From NCBI GenBank assembly GCA_030167865.1, contig JALAGF010000925.1:1-43365 (forward strand): 43,365 nucleotides of DNA, in the 5' to 3' direction. Each line of letters starts with the position of its first letter. Positions within the stretch are counted from its first letter, which is position 1. Made by a program: the position numbers and the translations under genes. The stretch comes from Craspedostauros australis (lineage: Eukaryota). Positions 967 through 40,185 of this stretch are shown one piece after another. The notes under the pieces are model-generated. The model was not told the DNA's origin. It made no database searches and worked only from the letters and a program-made list of their open reading frames with translations.

Positions 967-2550
967 TCACGCGTAACAGGAAGAATCGCCGATGCAGCCT
1001 CCGTCAGCCACCAGATCAACGTTGAAATAGCATGCCCTGGTGCCGAGGCAAGCTCCATTGCCCACATCGCCGGTGTTGCGGTAGCACGCTCGATACATGT
1101 TGCACGAATCCACCCCGATCTCGCCCCCGTTGTAGTAGCAGGCTTGATCTCCAATGCAGGAGCCCTTCGCAATGTTGCCTTTGTTGTATCTGCATGCGTA
1201 GTCCAGCTGGCAGGAGCCTTCACCGATGGTGCCCCTATTGTAAATACAAGAGTCTCCACCAATGCATGCGTTAGACGTGACGATTCCGTCGTTGCGTCGG
1301 CATGCGTCATCGCCCAAGCACGATCCTTCCCCCACATTGCCGTAATTGTAGTCACAGGCGCTCTCGCCGAGGCAGGAGCCGTCACTGACATTTGCAGTGT
1401 TGCCGACACATGCCGTCTCATTGATACATGAGCCACTACCAAGGTAGCCAGTGTTATCAGCGCAAGCGAAGCTTCCGAAGCAAGAACCCTTGCTGACGAC
1501 CCCCCCGTTGTACACGCATGCACGATTACCAATGCAAGCGTCATCGGCGATAGTGCCAGAGTCCGCGAAGCCAGCGTACTGGAAGCAAGCTTTTTCTCCG
1601 GAGCAAGAGCCCTTACCGACGGGCCCCGTGTTGGACATGCATGCACGATCGCCATTGCAAGCGTCATCGGCGATAGCACCAGAGTTCTCGTAGCAAGCAG
1701 CCTCGCCGTTGCAAGCACGGGAGGGCACGGACACAGTGGTGTACTGGCAGGCTCTGTCACCGTTGCAAGAGTAGGAGGCAATCTGGATGGTCATCGTGAT
1801 GTTGGGATTGAAGAAGCAAGCTTTCTCGCCGTTGCAGGAGTCAGGGCAGACTGTTACAGAGCTTCCACTGCTCCAAGAGCATACGGGAGATGCGGCGTTG
1901 ACCGACGCTTCGCAACAGTTGGCATCCTCGGCCGCGCACTTGGCAGTGACAGCTTCGGCTGTTCCAGTGAAGCACGGCTCGAGTACCTCGGGGGGCTTGG
2001 TCGATTTCGAGGACTTCGCCGATTTCGACGATTTGGTCGATTTCGAGGACTTCGCCGATTTCGAGGACTTGAGCTGACGACTGTTGGCGTCGCGAGCCTC
2101 GTCTGTCTCTGTTCCAACAGACAGAGTGCTGTGCTCGAGCGATGCACGCTCATCCTCATCGCTGGACGCATCTTGGGCTTGAAGGCGACCGAGATCGGCG
2201 TACTTGTCCTTGATGTTGGTGGAGACGGAAGGACGTGGACGGCGGATGCTGTCTGCGATCTTGTCTGTTGCAGTTTCGACCTTTCCATCGTGAGAATGCA
2301 GGTGAGAGTGGAAGTGAGAGTGCAAGTGAGAGTGCGATTGCGAGTATGGCATGTTGGCATCTTCCCTCTTGTGGTTGGCTGTCAACTCCATGAGCCTCGC
2401 CTTGGCAGTGTTGATGTTGGCGTCGACATTGACGTCGATTTTGCCATCTGCGGCTGCCTTCTTGTTGGTGTTCAGCACCGCGTCGACGCCATTGCAGATG
2501 ATGCTCTGAGCTACGACGAGAGCGAGGATGTCTTTCTTGATGATCGGCAT
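967..2550 (-). CDS. Secreted protein with RxL site, KxxK (silaffin-like) repeat and 16 Cys-x5-Cys repeats
   Basis: 527-aa ATG ORF with a hydrophobic N-terminus (ILALVVAQSIICNGVDA), a His-rich tract and RQL-KSSKSAKSSKSTKSSKSAKSSKSTK. These are followed by ~18-aa repeats of [SA]CxGxxACxxNxGx[IV]xx[GD]. Confidence 0.85.
   Translation of the reverse strand: MPIIKKDILALVVAQSIICNGVDAVLNTNKKAAADGKIDVNVDANINTAKARLMELTANHKREDANMPYSQSHSHLHSHFHSHLHSHDGKVETATDKIADSIRRPRPSVSTNIKDKYADLGRLQAQDASSDEDERASLEHSTLSVGTETDEARDANSRQLKSSKSAKSSKSTKSSKSAKSSKSTKPPEVLEPCFTGTAEAVTAKCAAEDANCCEASVNAASPVCSWSSGSSVTVCPDSCNGEKACFFNPNITMTIQIASYSCNGDRACQYTTVSVPSRACNGEAACYENSGAIADDACNGDRACMSNTGPVGKGSCSGEKACFQYAGFADSGTIADDACIGNRACVYNGGVVSKGSCFGSFACADNTGYLGSGSCINETACVGNTANVSDGSCLGESACDYNYGNVGEGSCLGDDACRRNDGIVTSNACIGGDSCIYNRGTIGEGSCQLDYACRYNKGNIAKGSCIGDQACYYNGGEIGVDSCNMYRACYRNTGDVGNGACLGTRACYFNVDLVADGGCIGDSSCYA
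1996..2070 (-). repeat. 36-bp coding tandem duplication encoding (KSSKSAKSSKST)x2-K
   Basis: ttggtcgatttcgaggacttcgccgatttcga occurs twice in tandem with a 36-bp period. Confidence 0.9.
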
Positions 2551-4765: not shown

Positions 4766-7282
4766 CTACTGCCTGCCTTCGTTCACCAGCTTGATGATTT
4801 CCAGAATGATCTCGGCGGCTTCGGGCAGACTGTTCAAATTATCCTCCGTATCTTCGTGACCGCGTGCCAACACCGCATCCAACGTCGTCTCCGGGTATTC
4901 ATCCGTGCTCACGTTGTTGAGAGATGGCTGCAGCACATCCGTGACGTGCTCGTGCTTTTCGTAGAATCGATAGAACGATTCGCTCACCTTGCTCTGCTGT
5001 ACGGTGTCGACAAAATGATCGAACTCATCCCACATGTGCGCCGCGTTGTCTGCGCCCCATACATCGAAGAAGCTCGAGGTCTTGTTCCTGCTGCCGCCGC
5101 GCACACCTCCAGTTTGTCGCGATGCGGTGGATAACGTTTCGAAGGAATTGCCAAAGACGTGCGGTTTTTGACACGAGCTGTCGACGTGCCGGCTCAGTTC
5201 CACGTTCAATCGTTGCTCGTCATCCGACTCCAAGTAGTGCGCCAACAACGGCATCTCCGAGAAGATGCATTCCGACATCAGTTGCGATCCAGCGGATGAG
5301 GCAACGCCATCAGCGACGCTCATGAGGGGAACGAACATCGATCGATCCATCACGCGGATCAACCGCGGGTGGCCAAGTTCCTCCTTGGCATTTGCATTTC
5401 CCATACCTCCACCGCCGAGACTACCGCCCGAGTCTTCCACCAGTCTGCGATGAACATCTTCCTTCATTTTGCGTTCCTCTTTCGTCGCTTGCTCCTTCAT
5501 TTCGCGTCGATGCTGCTGTTCCAACTCCGTGTACGGCACACCTCTGGCTTCCCGCACTTCGTCATGATTGTGCACGATCCATTTGGCACCGTACCGATTG
5601 GGGTCGCTGAGCATATCACGAAAGTACCCATTGTCAAACAGCAGCACATCGAACCCAGCCTGCAGCAAGGCCCGCGTGGCGATGGCACCGTTGTGATCTC
5701 GGAAGTAGCAGATCACGATCTTGCGTCGCTGGGCAGATTTGGCAGCGAGCGGTGGTTCCAACGAATCCAACAAAAGGTGTTTGACCTGATCTTCGCGTGG
5801 CAGAACGGGTGCAAAGCGTCCCGTCCGCTGCGAATAGCGTCGCGAGTACGCCATGCGGATGACTTCGGGCCGCATGGGCGCCCGCGCCACCGTTCCGCTT
5901 TTGACGGCGCTCTCCAAGAAGCAGAAATGGGTCGCGATTTGCCATTCCGAAAAGAAGCTGGAGCGGAAGTTGAGCGTGGCCTGCTTCTGCCAGCTCTGGC
6001 TGAGAAAGGCGTTGTTCGTGATCCACGATGGAGTTTGCGCAATGTGAAAGAGTTGTCCATGCGCGATGCCGACGGAGGGGATGCCACCCAGCTTGGCACG
6101 CAGCATGCCCGGCAAATCACCATCGCTGATCACGAGTACGGGGTATCGATCGCGATTGATCGAGACTTCGCAGTCGTTGATGATGCGTTCCGCGACGTGT
6201 GAGATCATGGAGAAGAAGCTCATGGAGGGCGTGAGGGAGGACACGCTGAGTGCCGTGGTGACACCTTTGCGCTCGTGACTGTGGGTGATGAGTTTGGAAT
6301 CCTCATGCATGGCCCGCCACATCGATGCTCTGGATAAGAACAGACGCACATCGACGCCAGCCTCATTGAGCTGATCCACGATGGCGACGCTCCTGGCGTA
6401 GTGACCAATGCCGCGTCCATGCACGTAGTACTCGACCAACGGGTTCTGCGTGGATCCCGACCCGCCAGCAGAATCCCCATGGTCCAGAGCGTGCGGTGGC
6501 GGCGTGCACACGCGCATCCCATCGCTGAAGAAGTCAAACAAGATCCAACAGGCCAACAGAAAGCATCCAATGACGAGCCTCAGCACGACGTAGCTGGATA
6601 TGCGCCGCATGCTGTTGCATGGCCGCTTCATCGATCTCCAGGCGTATCTCATGTACAGCGAACACACGACGCAGAGCTCCCTCGCGATGACCTTGAGAGA
6701 CGGTAACGGTGGCGCGTTGCTGCTGTCCTGAGATCGGGATCCCTCCCTCCCGATGCCAGCATCGCCGTGCGCATTGGGATTGGAATTTGGCATGTCGCTG
6801 TTGCCCGACAATGGATCATGTCCAAAGAAAGATGAATGCATCGATGCAGGTCCACGCCTTCGAAGTCCGCCCTCGCCCTTGTATCTTTTGGAGAAACGAA
6901 ACACGTCATCGCTCCTGCCTCCGCTTTCTCTCTGCATCGCAGCTGCTGCTGCTGCTGCTGCTGACGACGACGGCGACGCTGTAGATTGCGCAAACATGGA
7001 TGGCACCTCCGAATCTCGACTCCCACCCTTGTGCATGCGCTGGTGTGCTTTGCGCTGTCCCTTGGAGGGTGTCGCCGATGGTCCTGGCGATAAGGTCGCC
7101 GACCGCGTCCTCCTGCGTGGACTTCGCATGGCTCTCGCATTGCGCGATGGCCGTTGCTGGTCGTCAAAGTGCGTCGATGATTGCGCCGACGCATGCCGAT
7201 TGCGCGATGTCAGGTCGGATCGGTTGCGTCCCTCGTCGCCGCCGTCATTGGAAGAATCATCCTTGAGACCGAACGGGTTCAT
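4766..7282 (-). CDS. Type II membrane GT-B glycosyltransferase (Glyco_trans_1_3/MJ1255-like)
   Basis: 838-aa ORF with a low-complexity N-terminus and a single TM (VVLRLVIGCFLLACWILF). Motifs: YYVHGRGIGHYARS, VISDGD...GIPSVGIAH and VASSAGSQLMSECIFSEMPLL...EQRLN. Confidence 0.78.
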   Translation of the reverse strand: MNPFGLKDDSSNDGGDEGRNRSDLTSRNRHASAQSSTHFDDQQRPSRNARAMRSPRRRTRSATLSPGPSATPSKGQRKAHQRMHKGGSRDSEVPSMFAQSTASPSSSAAAAAAAAMQRESGGRSDDVFRFSKRYKGEGGLRRRGPASMHSSFFGHDPLSGNSDMPNSNPNAHGDAGIGREGSRSQDSSNAPPLPSLKVIARELCVVCSLYMRYAWRSMKRPCNSMRRISSYVVLRLVIGCFLLACWILFDFFSDGMRVCTPPPHALDHGDSAGGSGSTQNPLVEYYVHGRGIGHYARSVAIVDQLNEAGVDVRLFLSRASMWRAMHEDSKLITHSHERKGVTTALSVSSLTPSMSFFSMISHVAERIINDCEVSINRDRYPVLVISDGDLPGMLRAKLGGIPSVGIAHGQLFHIAQTPSWITNNAFLSQSWQKQATLNFRSSFFSEWQIATHFCFLESAVKSGTVARAPMRPEVIRMAYSRRYSQRTGRFAPVLPREDQVKHLLLDSLEPPLAAKSAQRRKIVICYFRDHNGAIATRALLQAGFDVLLFDNGYFRDMLSDPNRYGAKWIVHNHDEVREARGVPYTELEQQHRREMKEQATKEERKMKEDVHRRLVEDSGGSLGGGGMGNANAKEELGHPRLIRVMDRSMFVPLMSVADGVASSAGSQLMSECIFSEMPLLAHYLESDDEQRLNVELSRHVDSSCQKPHVFGNSFETLSTASRQTGGVRGGSRNKTSSFFDVWGADNAAHMWDEFDHFVDTVQQSKVSESFYRFYEKHEHVTDVLQPSLNNVSTDEYPETTLDAVLARGHEDTEDNLNSLPEAAEIILEIIKLVNEGRQ

Positions 7283-33532: not shown

Positions 33533-36500
33533 ATGACGACGATCAATGATACCTGCATGCCGCCAAGCGGCGACGACAAACACGATGATGGGACCATGAC
33601 TTCCCGCACCGCTGACAATGATACTATTTCTTCCTTTGATCATCCTTCACCAATCGCCAGCAATGGGAGATGCAATCCAACGGGATACGAGATGCGCTTG
33701 TGTCTCGCCGCGGATTCATCGACTTTCCTCGAGATGACATCCGCAACGTCCACCGACTTCAGCACCAGAAATGATACCCACGCCCAACACGTGGACAGTA
33801 GACGGTCTCGCCAATTTGTCACCGATGCCTTGCCCTCGAGCCGATACAGCGTTCTGAACAGTTGTACGGATCATCGGCCAGTTCTCGCAACAGAGACCAA
33901 TCGCATGCGCACATCTAGAAAGTTGGCAGAGATCTCCCAAGCGTCGCTGGACTTTTCGCGTGTCACCCTGCTCGGAAGGGACAAGGAACAACGGGCTCTG
34001 GACCATGCATTCCAACAGATCCTTAACAAGCCAACACCTGCAGTCTCAGCGCTTTCTTCGTTGAATGAAGACGGCGCACGCCATGGAGACCGCACCCATA
34101 AACGCAATTCAGTCAATCGCAATACCGGTGGAGCTGACAGCAGTGGCAGCTGCATCGATCAGCATCCAGATACGCAGACGGCCTCCATCCGATCCTTCGT
34201 GTCCATCTCAGGGTACTCTGGCACCGGGAAATCAGCGTTGGCTGCCACTCTTCATCCAAAATGCATGGCCAACAACGTCTTTTTCGTTTCCGGAAAATTC
34301 GATCTGAAGCAGATGGATGAACCGTATTCCGGTTTCCGAACTGCCATGACCAATCTGTGCTCGCAAATCTGCAGCCTTCCAAGGGCTGATGCTGATGCCA
34401 AAGCGACTGGCAGCGTACTAATACCTGAAGGACGGGACAGCCGGAGCTTCGATGTGATCAGGCAGCGCATCATACAGGGTCTCAACATCGATGAGCTGCG
34501 ATCGCTCCACAACCTCATCCCGAACCTCGTCGATGTCATTGGCAAAGATACACTGTGTGACACAGACATCCCAAGCAACGACGGCAACGCAAGCAGCACA
34601 GTGATAGCCAGCCAACATGCACACGCAAACACAGAAGGCTTCAAGGAGCAGTCCGTTAGGCTCAAGTTTGCCTTCCGTCGATTCATCACGATCATCTGCG
34701 CCTACTGCCCCCTTGTATGGGTATCCGACGATGTCCAATGGGCTGACAAAGAGTCGCTCAACATGATCGAGTCATGTTTGTTGGACATCACCATCTCCTC
34801 ACTCATGATTGTCATCTGCTTCCGATCTAAACTCATCAGCACGGATGGAATCGACAGCAGTCGCGCCGGCAGTGGGGATGTCCACGTCTCCGATTTAAAT
34901 TCTGGGACAACGTCCAACACAACCAGTCTGGTTGGCGAAATGCTGGTGTCGATAAAGAAGAAGCGACGGGAGCGCTTCCTTCGGTACGCCAATCTAGAGA
35001 TCAACAACTTGTCGTTGGACAACGTGCACAGCATGCTCAAGCAGTTGTTGGGAATATACAACGATGATGACCACAGTGACGGTGAACACGAGAGCAACAG
35101 AAGCGACAGCAGCTACGGACTGGCAGAAATCGTCTTCAAGAAGACCGATGGCAACGTCTTCTTCGTCCAACAGTTCATCCGGATGCTCGTCAAGGACAAA
35201 ATCCTGGCATACAGCATCGCGTCGACGAAGTGGGTGTGGGATAACGATCAGATCAAGCAAAAGACTCCGGCAACCATCAATGTGGCGGAGCTGATGGAAC
35301 TGAAGCTGCAGCAGATCGACACGGCACAGTACCTGCTGCCCTTGGCTGCATGTTTGGGATCCACATTTTCGTGGCTGCTTTTGCGGACGGTGCTGGAGGG
35401 ATTCGCTGAGGACGATGGAACAAGCGAAGTAGGCCACCGAGCAATGTACGAGTCTCTGTTTGGTCCGCCGCCATCAAGCGAAGCTGAATGGTTGGATATC
35501 CTGGAGACCTATGAAGAGGAAGGACTGATCGAATCTCGTACTGATAGCTGCAGCAGCAGCGGCTCCACAAACGAGACCGCACCGCCCGCGGCATCACCAA
35601 CACCAGCGTCCGCTGCATCGGAGTACTCCTTCATTCATGACAAGGTACAGGAGGCGGCATTGGGAATGATTTCTTCGAAGATGCACCTTCTGGAGCTGCA
35701 GCATCGCATCGGACTCATCTTGATGCATCGGTTGTCGCCGGATGACTTTGAGTCGTCGTTGTTCGTGGTGGCAAATCTTCTCAATGCCCGTCTGGATATG
35801 ATCCCGCAGTATCCATCATCGTTACCAACGACGCCAAAAGCAAATATCATCGACGTCATGCAAACGGTACGCTTCCGGATTGCAAAGCTCAATCTCGATG
35901 CTGGTACCGTTGCTGCATCTCACTCGGCCTTCCGAGCAGCCTTCAAATACTTCCAAAATGCCATCGACATGATGCCGCACAACCACTGGAAGTCGCATTA
36001 CGACATGAGTCTTCAACTGTTCACGTCAGTCACGGAGTGCGCTTACGTGAGCAACAAGTACGACATGATGCAGAAGTATGGTCGCATGGTGATCGAGCGA
36101 GACAACTGTCCTCTCATCGACAAGATGAGGGTGTATCACGTGCTTATGGATGGGGAGATGGCGATGCTCGAGCGTACCAACCTGAACGATGTGATGAAGC
36201 TGGGCACCGAAGTGATGGCACAGCTTGGGTATCGGTACCCCAAGAACGATATCATGAGGCTGCTGGTCCTCATCAGAGGGATGCTCAAGCTCAAGGCATC
36301 CGCAAAGAAATGGACGATCGAATATTTGGACTCGATGCAACCAATCGAAGATCCGATGGACGAGCTCATTCTGACAACCGTCGACAAGTACGGGTGGACC
36401 GCAGCTATTTGCGATCGAGGCTTGCATCCTTTGATCACAATCGATGGCGTCAACGACGCACTGACGAAAGGAAGATGCAATATCACTCCAGTTGCTCTGG

Positions 36501-37615
36501 CAAGTCTTGCGATGGTAATAGGTCCCATTCTGGGAGATTGGGATTCTGCAAGGTTGTATACCGACTATGCACTCAACATGCGCCTCACAATGAACGATAA
36601 AGCATCAGCAACCCGGGCGACGCTTATTTCGTACGGCATGGTATTGAACAATCTCATCCCGTACGAGAGCTGCAAACAACCATTGCTGGACGTCCATTCG
36701 GGAGCTATGGCTGCAGGAGACGTCTACGCTGCGATGTGGGTCATCGCCTTCTACCTCGACCTGTGCTTTCTGACAGCCAAGCCGTTGGAAAGCTTGGACG
36801 CAGACTATTCGAGATGGAAGAAAGTGTGCGAAGACTTTAACCAACACAAGATTTCTGAACAGCTGTCCACCAGGTGGCAAATGACGTTGACTCTGAGAGA
36901 ACAATCTGATGGACAGGTCGTCCTCGTTGGTGACGCATATGATGAAATCGCGGCCATGCAACGCATCGAAGAAACCAATGACAAGCCGCTGAAAATGGAC
37001 ATGCTTCGAGCGAGACTTTTTGCTGCAGCGTACATCGGTGATTACTATGGAGCTACAAACACAGCTTTGGGTAACTACGATACCCGACTCAAAGAGAGCC
37101 CTTCCTACATCATGACGATGCCGTACATATTCTGCGCCTCTTTTTCAGCAACGATTACTTGCCACCAAGATGCGCGCCTCACACGGTCCAAGCGCAACAA
37201 GATCAAGCGGTTGGCCCAGCGATCCCGCAAGGCACTCCAAGCTGCCGTGGACAGAGGCAATCCGAACGCGGTGCATTACCTTGCCATCCTCACTGCGGAG
37301 AGGGCTGCATGGAAGGCGCACAAGAAGCGACGCCAAGGAGACGCGTTCCAAGCCGCCGCCAAGCTGTACCAGGATGCCATTCTGCTCTGTGCGCGGACAG
37401 GATTCCCTCAGAATCAAGCGCTGGCGAATGAACGACTGGCCGAGCACATGCTGTTGGAACGCGACACGGAAGGCGCGGGGTACCACCTTGACGAAGCAAT
37501 TCGATTGTACGCGGAATGGGGCGCGGGCAGGGTGAAATCGCTGCAGGAGCGTCGCGAGCACATTCGCGTTACAGCTACAGAGATGAGAGGTCCCAACAAA
37601 GCAGAACACCGGTAG
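33533..37615 (+). CDS. Stand-alone STAND-type ATPase (AAA_16) with C-terminal TPR-like helical region
   Basis: Motifs LLGRDKE, Walker A ISGYSGTGKS, FVSGKFD...PYSGF, Walker B WVSDDVQWAD, KKTDGNVFFV, FIHDKVQEAA and QALANERLA...YAEWGA. First in-frame ATG is at 33533; intronless. Confidence 0.88.
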   Translation: MTTINDTCMPPSGDDKHDDGTMTSRTADNDTISSFDHPSPIASNGRCNPTGYEMRLCLAADSSTFLEMTSATSTDFSTRNDTHAQHVDSRRSRQFVTDALPSSRYSVLNSCTDHRPVLATETNRMRTSRKLAEISQASLDFSRVTLLGRDKEQRALDHAFQQILNKPTPAVSALSSLNEDGARHGDRTHKRNSVNRNTGGADSSGSCIDQHPDTQTASIRSFVSISGYSGTGKSALAATLHPKCMANNVFFVSGKFDLKQMDEPYSGFRTAMTNLCSQICSLPRADADAKATGSVLIPEGRDSRSFDVIRQRIIQGLNIDELRSLHNLIPNLVDVIGKDTLCDTDIPSNDGNASSTVIASQHAHANTEGFKEQSVRLKFAFRRFITIICAYCPLVWVSDDVQWADKESLNMIESCLLDITISSLMIVICFRSKLISTDGIDSSRAGSGDVHVSDLNSGTTSNTTSLVGEMLVSIKKKRRERFLRYANLEINNLSLDNVHSMLKQLLGIYNDDDHSDGEHESNRSDSSYGLAEIVFKKTDGNVFFVQQFIRMLVKDKILAYSIASTKWVWDNDQIKQKTPATINVAELMELKLQQIDTAQYLLPLAACLGSTFSWLLLRTVLEGFAEDDGTSEVGHRAMYESLFGPPPSSEAEWLDILETYEEEGLIESRTDSCSSSGSTNETAPPAASPTPASAASEYSFIHDKVQEAALGMISSKMHLLELQHRIGLILMHRLSPDDFESSLFVVANLLNARLDMIPQYPSSLPTTPKANIIDVMQTVRFRIAKLNLDAGTVAASHSAFRAAFKYFQNAIDMMPHNHWKSHYDMSLQLFTSVTECAYVSNKYDMMQKYGRMVIERDNCPLIDKMRVYHVLMDGEMAMLERTNLNDVMKLGTEVMAQLGYRYPKNDIMRLLVLIRGMLKLKASAKKWTIEYLDSMQPIEDPMDELILTTVDKYGWTAAICDRGLHPLITIDGVNDALTKGRCNITPVALASLAMVIGPILGDWDSARLYTDYALNMRLTMNDKASATRATLISYGMVLNNLIPYESCKQPLLDVHSGAMAAGDVYAAMWVIAFYLDLCFLTAKPLESLDADYSRWKKVCEDFNQHKISEQLSTRWQMTLTLREQSDGQVVLVGDAYDEIAAMQRIEETNDKPLKMDMLRARLFAAAYIGDYYGATNTALGNYDTRLKESPSYIMTMPYIFCASFSATITCHQDARLTRSKRNKIKRLAQRSRKALQAAVDRGNPNAVHYLAILTAERAAWKAHKKRRQGDAFQAAAKLYQDAILLCARTGFPQNQALANERLAEHMLLERDTEGAGYHLDEAIRLYAEWGAGRVKSLQERREHIRVTATEMRGPNKAEHR

Positions 37616-37958: not shown

Positions 37959-38546
37959 CCCTAATGAGAAATTTGTCACTGATTTTGGGTTCGCATCAAC
38001 AGCACTATTTGGCCTCCACGTGTAGGTGGTGAGATCGCATGCCAGACCAACATGGTCCTCCAGTGTGGTGGCTTCTCTCATTATTTAACTGGAACCTTCT
38101 GGCGCAGGCAATTTCGGCTGCAAACAAGGCCACATAAGGAATTCAGAACCCTAAGGACATACCCCATAAATAAATTATTTTTCAACAAGCCGGAACGCTT
38201 CGTGCATAGACACTGTTGAAAGACAATGATTGGATGACAATCGCAGACTTCGCTTGGAAATAGCACTGAAACAAGTTCTGCGAAGCACCGGAAGGTCTAA
38301 CCGCCGTCGGAAACCAAAAGAAGCACCAACGCCAATTCTGGAGAAACAAAAATCAAAAGTTTTGAGGACACAAAAGCGCCTCTCCGCGATAACGCTGTGT
38401 GGAAGTCGAAAACACAGTCTCAGTACCACCTCAGCTGACCGATGCGAACACAAAAGAGGTGACAAATGTGGCACATCGATCCAAATTTGTCACGTCAATG
38501 TGAAGTGCCAAATTTGTCACATCGGGGGCCCAAAATCTCATTAGGG
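37959..38546. mobile_element. Non-autonomous TIR DNA transposon (MITE-like), CCC...GGG termini with ATAT flanks
   Basis: ATAT|CCCTAATGAGA ... TCTCATTAGGG|ATAT forms a perfect inverted match. Subterminal AAATTTGTCAC repeats occur at both ends, and there is no convincing ORF. Confidence 0.8.
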
Positions 38547-38550
38547 ATAT

Positions 38551-40185
38551 CTGAATAAGATGTCCTCAATTGCACAGCTTCAGAAGTATGGCGATGATTG
38601 TCATCATGGACCAGACCATGCCATCTGATCTTGCTTTCACCCCTGCACTTGCAAGCATGCATTCCTCACACATGTGGATCCAAACAGTGCAGGACATCAT
38701 TCACAACAGTATTGGTGTGAGAACTTGTGCAATCTCATTTCTTCCATCATTATTAGCATTATGCTTTGTTCCGCACAGCTCTCTCTCGTGTTCGAGCTTA
38801 GTTGTGCGTATGAATCGTATCCTGAACCAACACGAACCATGAAATGGTCACATTACGAGCGAATAGCTCGACGAGAAACAAAACTAAAGAAGTACCAAGG
38901 TACTGGGTATTAGAGACAAGGTACCACGAAACAAGAACGATACTGTGAGATAGCTACTGGCCCAAACCAGTTGAACCTGAAGAGATGTAAAGATCCTATC
39001 CGATGCTTGCAGAACAGAGGAATGCAAGAGCAGAGGCATGGACATGAACAGAGGTCAGAGAGTAAGCTCACAACTCTTAAGTTTGTAATAACATTTGAGT
39101 TCCCAACAGACTTCCAGTGAACGCCACCTTCTCGATCTGATCAATTGCAGAAGGACGCGTTCTCCCCTACATTATCACCAATTCCTCAAGTCTAACAATC
39201 ATCATCTTGAATTGCACTCTTCATGCTTACAATTCTGACTTCACCAGATTCAGAATTGGGCCAGCTTTCATGAACTTCATCATCAACTACTTGAGCACAA
39301 CACAGTACCAACCATCTACATACTTCATTGTCGGATCTGATCAATCTTTATTTGGAGTATGTACCCTGTATTGTAATCTGTTCTATCACAGTGGTTTGAT
39401 TGGTGTTGCTCAGGTGTGATGCACAAGAGAAGAGTTGGAGAGATGGTTTATTGTGTGAAAGTGTATCTTCATGGATATCATACCATTATTATTGACTCAT
39501 TTGGGCACACCCAGACAAGAACAATAATGGTGCGCAAGATCTACTGAAACCACAGAATAGGAATTCAGTGAGGACAGACTACCTCCCAACTTACAGTGTC
39601 CTGCGTCGATGCTCAATAGTTAGCATTACACAAGCATTCCAACCCCAATGACCACAACATCTTCCTCCTTCTCCTCTTCTTCACTCGCAAATCATTGCCT
39701 AACTTCGTACCATGATCGATCAGATTTAGACTATCTGGGTGCCTTATGCTCTCCTGATCTTTTGAATTGCGATTCCATTTGATTCCATCTTTGACTATGG
39801 GAACAACCACATTGTCATGGCAATGCCATGGATATCCAACCTGTTTCAACAAGAGCAGGGAATCCAGCTATGAATTCTGACATTAAGTGCTGCTGCATCC
39901 TCTTTGCAACTTCAACATAATGCTGAGCGGTGTACTCTACATTGCAAAGCAACATCATATGGAAAGATGAGTAGAGGAAGCACCATTGTCTGACCTCAAC
40001 ACTGAACCAGGAGGATCAGTGCAGAGTTGTATTGACTGTGTGAACACCGTTTCTTCATCCTTCAATTACAACAACAAAAAGCTAACAAACTCAGAACACA
40101 CAAGCCCAAGATTCATCATAGCAACTCTACTTCTGCAAGTTCACTCCATGTGAACTGCATCAAACGGTTTCCCTAAAAAGGCCAT
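38551..40185 (-). pseudogene. Decayed AT-rich, CpG-depleted relic (probable ancient TE or pseudogene)
   Basis: Abrupt drop in GC and CpG with many TG/CA dinucleotides. Only short, stop-interrupted protein-like frames on the minus strand; family not recognised. Confidence 0.45.

Follow-up and report, generated by a model that had tools for sequence, protein, structure and literature searches.

Several classes of protein have been described from the frustule (the silica cell wall) of diatoms, among which those that carry lysine tags, the silaffins and cingulins, are low-complexity and repetitive as presented in the available portions of two sources (PMC4557024, 10.1101/2021.09.18.460806). Silaffins proper are characterized by tight association with biosilica, polyamine- or methyl-modified lysines, phosphoserines, and silica precipitation, and cingulins by a sequence in which KXXK regions and W- or Y-rich regions alternate in a highly repetitive manner; the motif RXL is given as the likely general processing motif in the precursors of silaffins, cingulins, silacidins, and frustulins (all from the available portion of PMC4557024). 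Frustulins, which according to the same portion of that source are secreted wall proteins, possess ACR domains of about 50 residues with the signatures CQGDCD or CEGDCD and VPGCSG (PMC4712521). Here, we describe a predicted protein of Craspedostauros australis, encoded on the minus strand at positions 967 to 2550 of contig JALAGF010000925.1 (assembly GCA_030167865.1; positions 1 to 43,365 of this contig were analyzed and are referred to as the window), in which a silaffin-like N-terminal module precedes a Cys-laddered repeat domain of the Pfam family DUF7640. Judging from its sequence, we put the chances at about even that this is a processed, lysine-tagged structural or surface-coat protein of the frustule.

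The coding sequence is complete and consists of a single uninterrupted frame of 527 codons that runs from ATG to a TGA stop (967–969), with neither an intron nor an in-frame upstream start, and both of its ends align with those of a Craspedostauros relative (P0002). At its N terminus lies a putative endoplasmic reticulum (ER) signal peptide (residues 1–24, positions 2479–2550), recognized by composition and conservation: KK at residues 5–6 precedes a hydrophobic core (highest Kyte-Doolittle mean over 10 residues, 2.43, starting at residue 8) and a VDA end, and the segment is kept in all four proteins of an alignment (A2) comprising the window protein and its relatives P0002, P0040, and P0019. 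The full-length AlphaFold2 model has a helix at residues 5–35, and no second hydrophobic segment is seen by eye in the protein. The pro-region that follows (residues 25–157, positions 2080–2478) is predicted to be disordered from residue 66 onward, and its last 40 residues have a net charge of −8. It contains 10 histidines, and its His-rich tract (residues 70–87, positions 2290–2343), in which H and S alternate, is encoded by a 12-nucleotide (nt) tandem repeat at 2290–2335; smaller His clusters occur in the pro-region of each of the three relatives. The tract may function in metal binding or pH sensing and belongs to the portion predicted to be cleaved off.

The pro-region ends at RQL (residues 158–160, positions 2071–2079), a candidate processing site and the sole R-x-L of the protein. 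Directly behind it, a K/S tract (residues 161–185, positions 1996–2070; net charge +9) carries nine lysines spaced at every third residue (161, 164, and so on to 185) and four KSSK motifs (at 161, 167, 173, and 179, with two residues between successive motifs), all encoded by 2.1 copies of a 36-nt tandem repeat at 1996–2071 (92% matches). The remainder is Cys-rich: an N-terminal solenoid cap (residues 186–238, positions 1837–1995), which begins with CFTGT, contains 6 Cys and one short helix, and has a net charge of −6, leads into 16 DUF7640 rungs (residues 239–527, positions 970–1836) that hold 32 Cys, are Tyr-rich at rung positions 8–9, and have a net charge of −13. The rungs comprise 16 C-x5-C units starting at residues 239 to 519, spaced by 23, 18, 18, 18, and 23 residues and then ten times by 18 (18 in 13 of 15 spacings), which brings the number of Cys after the signal peptide to 38, an even number. 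A scripted check confirms RQL, the nine period-3 lysines, and the 16 C-x5-C units at mostly 18-residue spacing, which an earlier note on this DNA had read from the letters alone; the His-rich tract is not mentioned in that note.

In six-frame scans of the window, 13 of the 15 matches to a two-unit Cys pattern fall in this open reading frame (ORF), the other two being isolated in other frames, and the sole match to the pentalysine pattern of silica-associated proteins lies here as well. The pattern is far beyond chance: the repeat region matches Pfam PF24646 (DUF7640) over five stretches with 204.2 bits (E = 7.2e-61; gathering threshold, 28.1 bits). A public sequencing run (X1) contains near-identical contigs over positions 931–1414 and 1443–1653, in which the TGA stop is replaced by TAA and a Tyr two codons earlier by Ser; they seem to come from another allele or a sister strain in which the end of the frame is preserved. 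The run bears on the sequence and not on expression. An apparent 641-base joint in the same run is noise, with the contig matching only 23–25 bases per side.

The lysine tract conforms to all three published sequence rules for silica targeting. It matches the pentalysine expression K..K..K.{1,2}K..K at residue 161, a pattern found in 29% of silica-proteome proteins versus 1.5% of the background (10.1101/2021.09.18.460806, available portion). It also passes a screen that requires an ER signal peptide at the N terminus and a series of KXXK motifs (X = S or G) with 1–6 residues between them (PMC5501833, available portion), as its own KXXK repeats are two residues apart and follow a putative signal peptide. 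The definition of a lysine-enriched region (LER), which specifies two or more K(X)2K motifs (X = S/G) separated by a maximum of four residues in a protein with a signal peptide and without a transmembrane domain, matches twice within the tract (at 161 and 173); in the available part of the source of this definition, screening for proteins that have a signal peptide and an LER or UM motif but lack a transmembrane domain led to two candidates, both of which were located in the frustule by green fluorescent protein (GFP) (PMC9650480). By every sequence criterion applied, the N-terminal module is silaffin-like.

Among described proteins, those closest to this module include frustule proteins of the centric diatom T. 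pseudonana (the cingulins CinW2/CinY2, Tp5357, Tp12162, and the silaffin tpSil3), which likewise have a signal peptide, RXL, and K(S/G)2K clusters; the stretch KSSKSTK of the window tract recurs in the LER of Tp5357 (Table 1 of PMC9650480, available portion). In contrast to these LER/pentalysine proteins, the window protein has a single tract, placed at the predicted mature N terminus, and the available portions of PMC4557024 and PMC9650480 mention no DUF7640-like repeat or beta-helix for any of them. In the Sil1p precursor of Cylindrotheca fusiformis, too, a signal peptide is followed by an acidic domain, then RXL, and then a basic, K/S-rich portion (PMC4557024, available portion), but Sil1p is cut into short peptides and lacks a folded domain, whereas the window protein has one tract ahead of a 342-residue folded region. 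Frustulins share with it a Cys-rich and acidic composition and RXL (PMC4557024, likewise in part); membership is rejected, both C(Q/E)GDCD and VPGCSG being absent from the window protein. Nor does it have the architecture of a cingulin: there is one K tract, and its Tyr residues sit inside folded rungs rather than in alternating low-complexity regions. AC3362 of Amphora, also considered as a counterpart, is a different kind of protein, in whose description cysteine is not mentioned.

The module is not confined to the window protein. Three relatives show the same succession of elements, from the signal peptide through a variable pro-region, a basic site, and a K,S-rich tract to the CFTG cap, with the basic site directly preceding the K/S tract in each: RQL in the window protein corresponds to RDL in P0002 (Craspedostauros), RRL in P0040 (Stauroneis constricta), and RRA, which is not R-x-L, in P0019. 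In the A2 alignment, the signal segment of the relatives ends in VDA, the pro-region is poorly conserved, and the cap Cys residues are invariant. The sources of P0002 and P0040 are raphid pennate diatoms from benthic habitats, and their record names are of the MMETSP type; if these are, as presumed, transcriptome assemblies, both relatives are transcribed. The junction of R-x-L with a K/S tract that the earlier note had singled out recurs in relatives. A search with residues 1–238 alone yielded 6,287 candidates, none at E ≤ 0.01, such that the pro-region and tag have no relatives detectable by this route. Among 158 sampled proteins of the DUF7640 family, the cap motif CF.G[STN] occurs in 13; a pro-region, basic site, and K/S tract ahead of the cap are found in only four (the window protein, P0002, P0040, and P0019), and in the others the cap comes after a signal peptide or a PT-rich linker. 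Because just 4 of these 13 cap-motif proteins carry a K tract before the cap, the N-terminal module seems to have been joined to a DUF7640 body that already existed, in line with the label "chimeric" that the protein had been given.

DUF7640 itself is a catalogued yet uncharacterized family of diatoms and bacteria. A Pfam scan of the window protein at E ≤ 1 returned nothing besides this family (hence, no Hexapep and no ice-binding family), and literature searches by the name DUF7640 and by the gene identifiers of two Cyclotella relatives found no publication. The earlier note had proposed that a match to a characterized family with the same architecture would count against its reading: the repeat does prove to be in Pfam already, but no characterized family with this architecture turned up. 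A word-indexed search recovered 7 relatives at E ≤ 0.001 among 8,000 scored candidates, five of them from diatoms by source name (Craspedostauros, Seminavis, Skeletonema, and two from Cyclotella). When HMMER was run exhaustively over 1.84 billion representatives, 372 proteins scored E ≤ 1e-3, of which 113 reached E ≤ 1e-10 and 4 reached E ≤ 1e-30. From the 158-protein sample, we scanned 47 against Pfam (all 43 with 400–5,000 residues plus four shorter ones), and 46 of these contain DUF7640. Their partner domains are all of extracellular types: PT, FG-GAP_2, Laminin_G_3, the proprotein-convertase P-domain (P_proprotein), Big_1/Big_3_5, PKD, DUF11, TSP_3, and DUF7633. Two long hits, P0014 and P0065, are probably chimeric gene models: one has 7,465 residues, and the other is a polyprotein of a retrotransposon, in which RVT and gag domains occur. 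P0065 shows no DUF7640 at E ≤ 1e-4.

Across the family, 683 rungs of exactly 18 residues give the consensus C-[NIVL]-G-x-x-[AS]-C-x-x-N-[TS]-G-x-[IV]-G-x-[GN]-[SA], and the rungs of the window protein (C-x-G-x-x-A-C-x-x-N-x-G-x-I-G-x-G-S) are the same unit as Pfam DUF7640. They differ in their Tyr content, with Tyr at 30% and 46% of rung positions 8 and 9, compared with 9% and below 6% in the family. Bacterial members include P0010, from a metagenome-assembled genome (MAG) of "Candidatus Brachythrix odensensis," and a weaker relative from a Limnocylindrales MAG; both MAGs belong to the Chloroflexota. In P0010 (locus L001, 2001–5369), DUF7640 arrays are fused to proprotein-convertase P-domains and PT-type linkers. 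A related-locus search with P0010 alone recovered only its own MAG and one Limnocylindrales locus, the corresponding search with alignment A1 found no conserved stretch, and a Protein Atlas search gave no usable match. On these sequence comparisons, the DUF7640 rod module is common to Chloroflexota bacteria and diatoms and may have been transferred between them. K/S-rich tracts also occur at other positions in two further diatom-type members of the family, namely at the C-terminal tail of P0006 from Cyclotella cryptica (residues about 560–612) and upstream of the FG-GAP repeats of P0026 (residues about 188–220), and for this reason the pairing of rod and lysine tract may have arisen more than once.

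To model the fold, we used AlphaFold2 with a 79-sequence alignment, once for the full-length protein and once for residues 186–527. The full-length model has a mean predicted local distance difference test (pLDDT) score of 68.8 and a cap helix at 198–207; residues 66–190 score below 50, an indication that pro-region and tag are disordered, and most rungs score above 90. Most rungs also exceed 90 in the 342-residue model of the remainder (mean pLDDT, 78.4; predicted template modeling score, 0.62), such that the solenoid proposed in the earlier note is predicted with high confidence in both. The top weak rows of a Foldseek search are, for both models, all left-handed beta-helix enzymes. A second structural aligner, VIA, run over 48,161 representative chains, aligns the full-length and domain models, respectively, with YdcK (2f9c; Z 16.4, at a root mean square deviation [rmsd] of 5.9 Å, and Z 14.5), GlmU (1hm0; Z 13.8, 3.0 Å over 190 residues, and Z 15.5, 2.9 Å over 189), LpxD (2iu8; Z 13.7 and 15.4), and QdtC (Z 12.9 and 15.1). 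The left-handed beta-helix matches on which the fold assignment rests span Z 13.6–16.4 with the full-length model and Z 14.5–15.5 with the domain model and, apart from YdcK with the full-length model, have an rmsd of 2.8–4.0 Å; right-handed beta-helices reach only 10–13 Å. The VIA lists also include the adhesin beta-helices and beta-rolls EtpA, UspA1, and BpaC.

Sequence alone points in the same direction: phmmer aligns LpxA at E = 5.4e-4 with the rungs in hexapeptide register, which places an aliphatic residue plus G on rung positions 2–3 and 14–15, the small i+4 residue on positions 6, 12, and 18, and both Cys of a rung directly before an aliphatic position; the beta-bridges of the model fall at rung positions 2 and 14. 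From the VIA matches, this LpxA register, and the modeled beta-bridges, we conclude that the predicted solenoid winds as a left-handed beta-helix, each coil taking up 18 residues in a hexapeptide register like that of LpxA or GlmU. The rise usual for such a helix is about 4.8 Å per rung, from which the modeled rod would be roughly 7–8 nm long. The window protein thereby shares fold, coil length, and register with LpxA, LpxD, GlmU, YdcK, and gamma-carbonic anhydrase. LpxA/GlmU-type hexapeptide proteins are generally cytosolic trimeric enzymes and are not known to carry Cys ladders, whereas the window protein has a secretory leader and no Hexapep match; with no Pfam Hexapep hit at E ≤ 1, it is not placed among the hexapeptide-repeat acyltransferases, a group defined by such a match and a catalytic site. 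An enzymatic role is not likely. A literature search for diatoms together with left-handed beta-helix or hexapeptide repeat found no publication that combines both.

How the Cys ladder is bonded is a matter on which the evidence conflicts. In 148 family proteins, the short gap between Cys residues is nearly constant (6 in 1,206 cases, 7 in 48), the long gap being the one that varies in length (12 residues in 808 cases, 13 in 98, 14 in 60); going by these sequences, the Cys pair of C-x5-C is conserved as a unit, as expected for disulfides. In favor of pairing within a rung are also the lack of a preference for an even number of rungs in the arrays (73 even, 61 odd) and the even total of 38 Cys after the signal peptide. 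Against it, the LpxA register puts the two Cys of a rung at equivalent positions on adjacent faces, and geometry implies that they should be too far apart to bond in an undistorted triangular coil. The idea that C-x5-C staples each rung is favored by the behavior of the pair as a unit and disfavored by the register, and disulfide pairing in the rungs, including a bond of each C-x5-C within its own rung, is inferred on conflicting grounds.

As a frustule protein, the gene product would pass through four steps. The N-terminal signal peptide, judged from its sequence and conservation, would carry the pre-pro-protein into the ER. The mostly disordered pro-region would then be cut off at the single RQL, as described for silaffin, cingulin, and frustulin precursors, with its acidic end perhaps masking the basic tract until cleavage. 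The exposed K/S tract, probably phosphorylated on Ser and alkylated on Lys, would act as an LER/pentalysine cluster that, by the published targeting rules, directs the protein to biosilica and anchors it there. What the tract would hold, at the level of the model, is a capped left-handed beta-helix of 16 rungs with two columns of 16 Cys and an acidic, Tyr/Asn-lined surface, that is, a rigid acidic rod on a cationic silica tag.

Several observations weigh against assigning the protein to the frustule in this manner. The strict pentalysine and LER patterns of the window protein are kept in none of the three relatives, of which P0002 and P0040 reach only a weaker rule (two K..K motifs within 10 residues) and P0019 carries RRA in place of R-x-L. 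The targeting rules were worked out in T. pseudonana, a centric species, and the pentalysine expression is present in 1.5% of the background as well (10.1101/2021.09.18.460806, available portion). DUF7640 is not in itself a silica domain, because the pentalysine cluster is present in only 3 of the 158 family proteins and some members are bacterial. With respect to the rod, Foldseek finds no match in the PDB at E ≤ 0.001 for either model (best E values of 0.6 and 0.8); the structural check that had been proposed for the repeat region (here, residues 186–527) thus delivered a predicted beta-helix but no significant Foldseek match. The low-confidence breaks differ between the models, at 320–360 in one and at 214–265 and 369–384 in the other, and because the two break at different points, it is not certain that the modeled rod is continuous and unbroken.

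A serious rival, though one that we rate as less probable than an even chance, is that the protein has a general cell-surface or matrix role: secreted, related to mucilage, extracellular polymeric substances (EPS), or adhesion, and not built into silica, it would bind anionic polysaccharides through the tract, which would be no more than a flexible cationic linker, and would use the beta-helix as a spacer or glycan-binding rod. Its weight comes from the adhesin-type partner domains of the DUF7640 family, which in diatoms and bacteria include FG-GAP, Laminin_G_3, Big_1, PKD, and VWD (the last by source name, in Seminavis). The adhesin folds EtpA, UspA1, and BpaC in the VIA lists, the benthic raphid sources of P0002 and P0040, and the failure of relatives to keep the strict silica-targeting pattern all fit this role, but the tract's agreement with all three targeting rules does not. 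The suggestion that the protein is part of the adhesive trail, made in the earlier note, finds no backing in the eight published trail proteins of C. australis, which are described with CAA, PTS, DUF4215, and vWA; none is described with this architecture in the available text, although proteomics can miss proteins. The nearest in kind, CaTrailin3, has by its description, in the part available, Cys repeats of six Cys each plus a CAA domain.

The remaining alternatives are far less probable than a matrix role. Improbable is a function in metal handling, in which the His-rich pro-region and the 32 laddered Cys, if unoxidized, would act at the cell surface as chelators of Zn, Cu, or Cd, a role that has been suggested for frustulins (Cd chelation by frustulins is reported in the available portion of PMC4557024). 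The His/Ser tract at 70–87 and the small His cluster in the pro-region of each relative would suit such a function, but the tract lies in the portion predicted to be removed, and the Cys pairs are kept as units in the manner of disulfides. In addition, the Cys residues of secreted proteins are expected to be oxidized. We give still less credence to an ice-binding protein that works like the beta-helical antifreeze proteins of insects, although the domain model superposes on those of spruce budworm (1m8n; Z 9.5, rmsd 3.0 Å over 109 residues), which is also a secreted Cys-containing beta-solenoid (the window protein being secreted by prediction), and ryegrass (3ult; Z 11.3, rmsd 2.3 Å over 111 residues). 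Having the fold in common does not by itself establish a function, Pfam has no ice-binding match, and the flat face of stacked T-x-T motifs that marks beta-helical antifreeze proteins is lacking: T-x-T is absent from the regular 18-residue rungs, its four occurrences falling in the pro-region (residues 93 and 147), the cap (195), and the irregular first rung of 23 residues (252). The proposal of ice binding accordingly finds no backing other than the fold. As for the analogy with beetle antifreeze proteins, the beetle protein is a right-handed 12-residue coil, proteins of its type are absent from the match lists, and the nearest antifreeze analogue is that of spruce budworm. Equally slight is the prospect that a bipartite presequence targets the protein to the plastid or periplastidial compartment, which would explain the unusually well-conserved N-terminal hydrophobic segment. 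The diatom plastid-import rule calls for F, W, Y, or L at +1, and P0019 has F directly behind VDA, whereas P0040 and P0002 have L there; the window protein, however, has V, with many D/E downstream, and 38 Cys together with a repeat fold suit the secretory route better.

Elsewhere in the window, the neighbors are ordinary eukaryotic genes, among them those for a PAP2 protein, a BRO1 protein, a Brr2-type helicase, a cyclin, a PPR protein, and a SET protein; in a eukaryote, neighboring genes say nothing about function. An ORF of 838 codons on the minus strand (4766–7282) has no Pfam match at E ≤ 0.001; Ser, Ala, and Arg abound in the low-complexity sequence of its N-terminal half. On the plus strand, an ORF of 1,360 codons (33533–37615) contains an AAA_16/NPHP3_N-type NTPase domain, which suggests a STAND-like protein. 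The GC content is 0.44 at 38001–40000 versus 0.51–0.59 in the rest of the window.

Returning to the reading of the protein as a lysine-tagged component of the frustule, its broadest form is one that we advance tentatively and regard as rather unlikely to hold in full: the window protein and its raphid relatives would constitute a new biosilica class, a Cys-laddered "nanorod" pinned on silica by a silaffin-type tag that is unmasked at RXL, in which the positive tag and negative rod allow head-to-tail assembly into an ordered lattice that patterns or reinforces the frustule, with a rod module in common with Chloroflexota. If the protein is indeed tagged for silica, it would represent a natural fusion of a silica-binding tag to folded cargo, relevant to immobilization on biosilica, and a tagged protein with a rigid, defined rod would make it easier to study the placement of organic scaffolds on diatom silica. 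For the family as a whole, reading DUF7640 as a Cys-laddered left-handed beta-helix provides a structural hypothesis for several hundred surface proteins of diatoms and bacteria.

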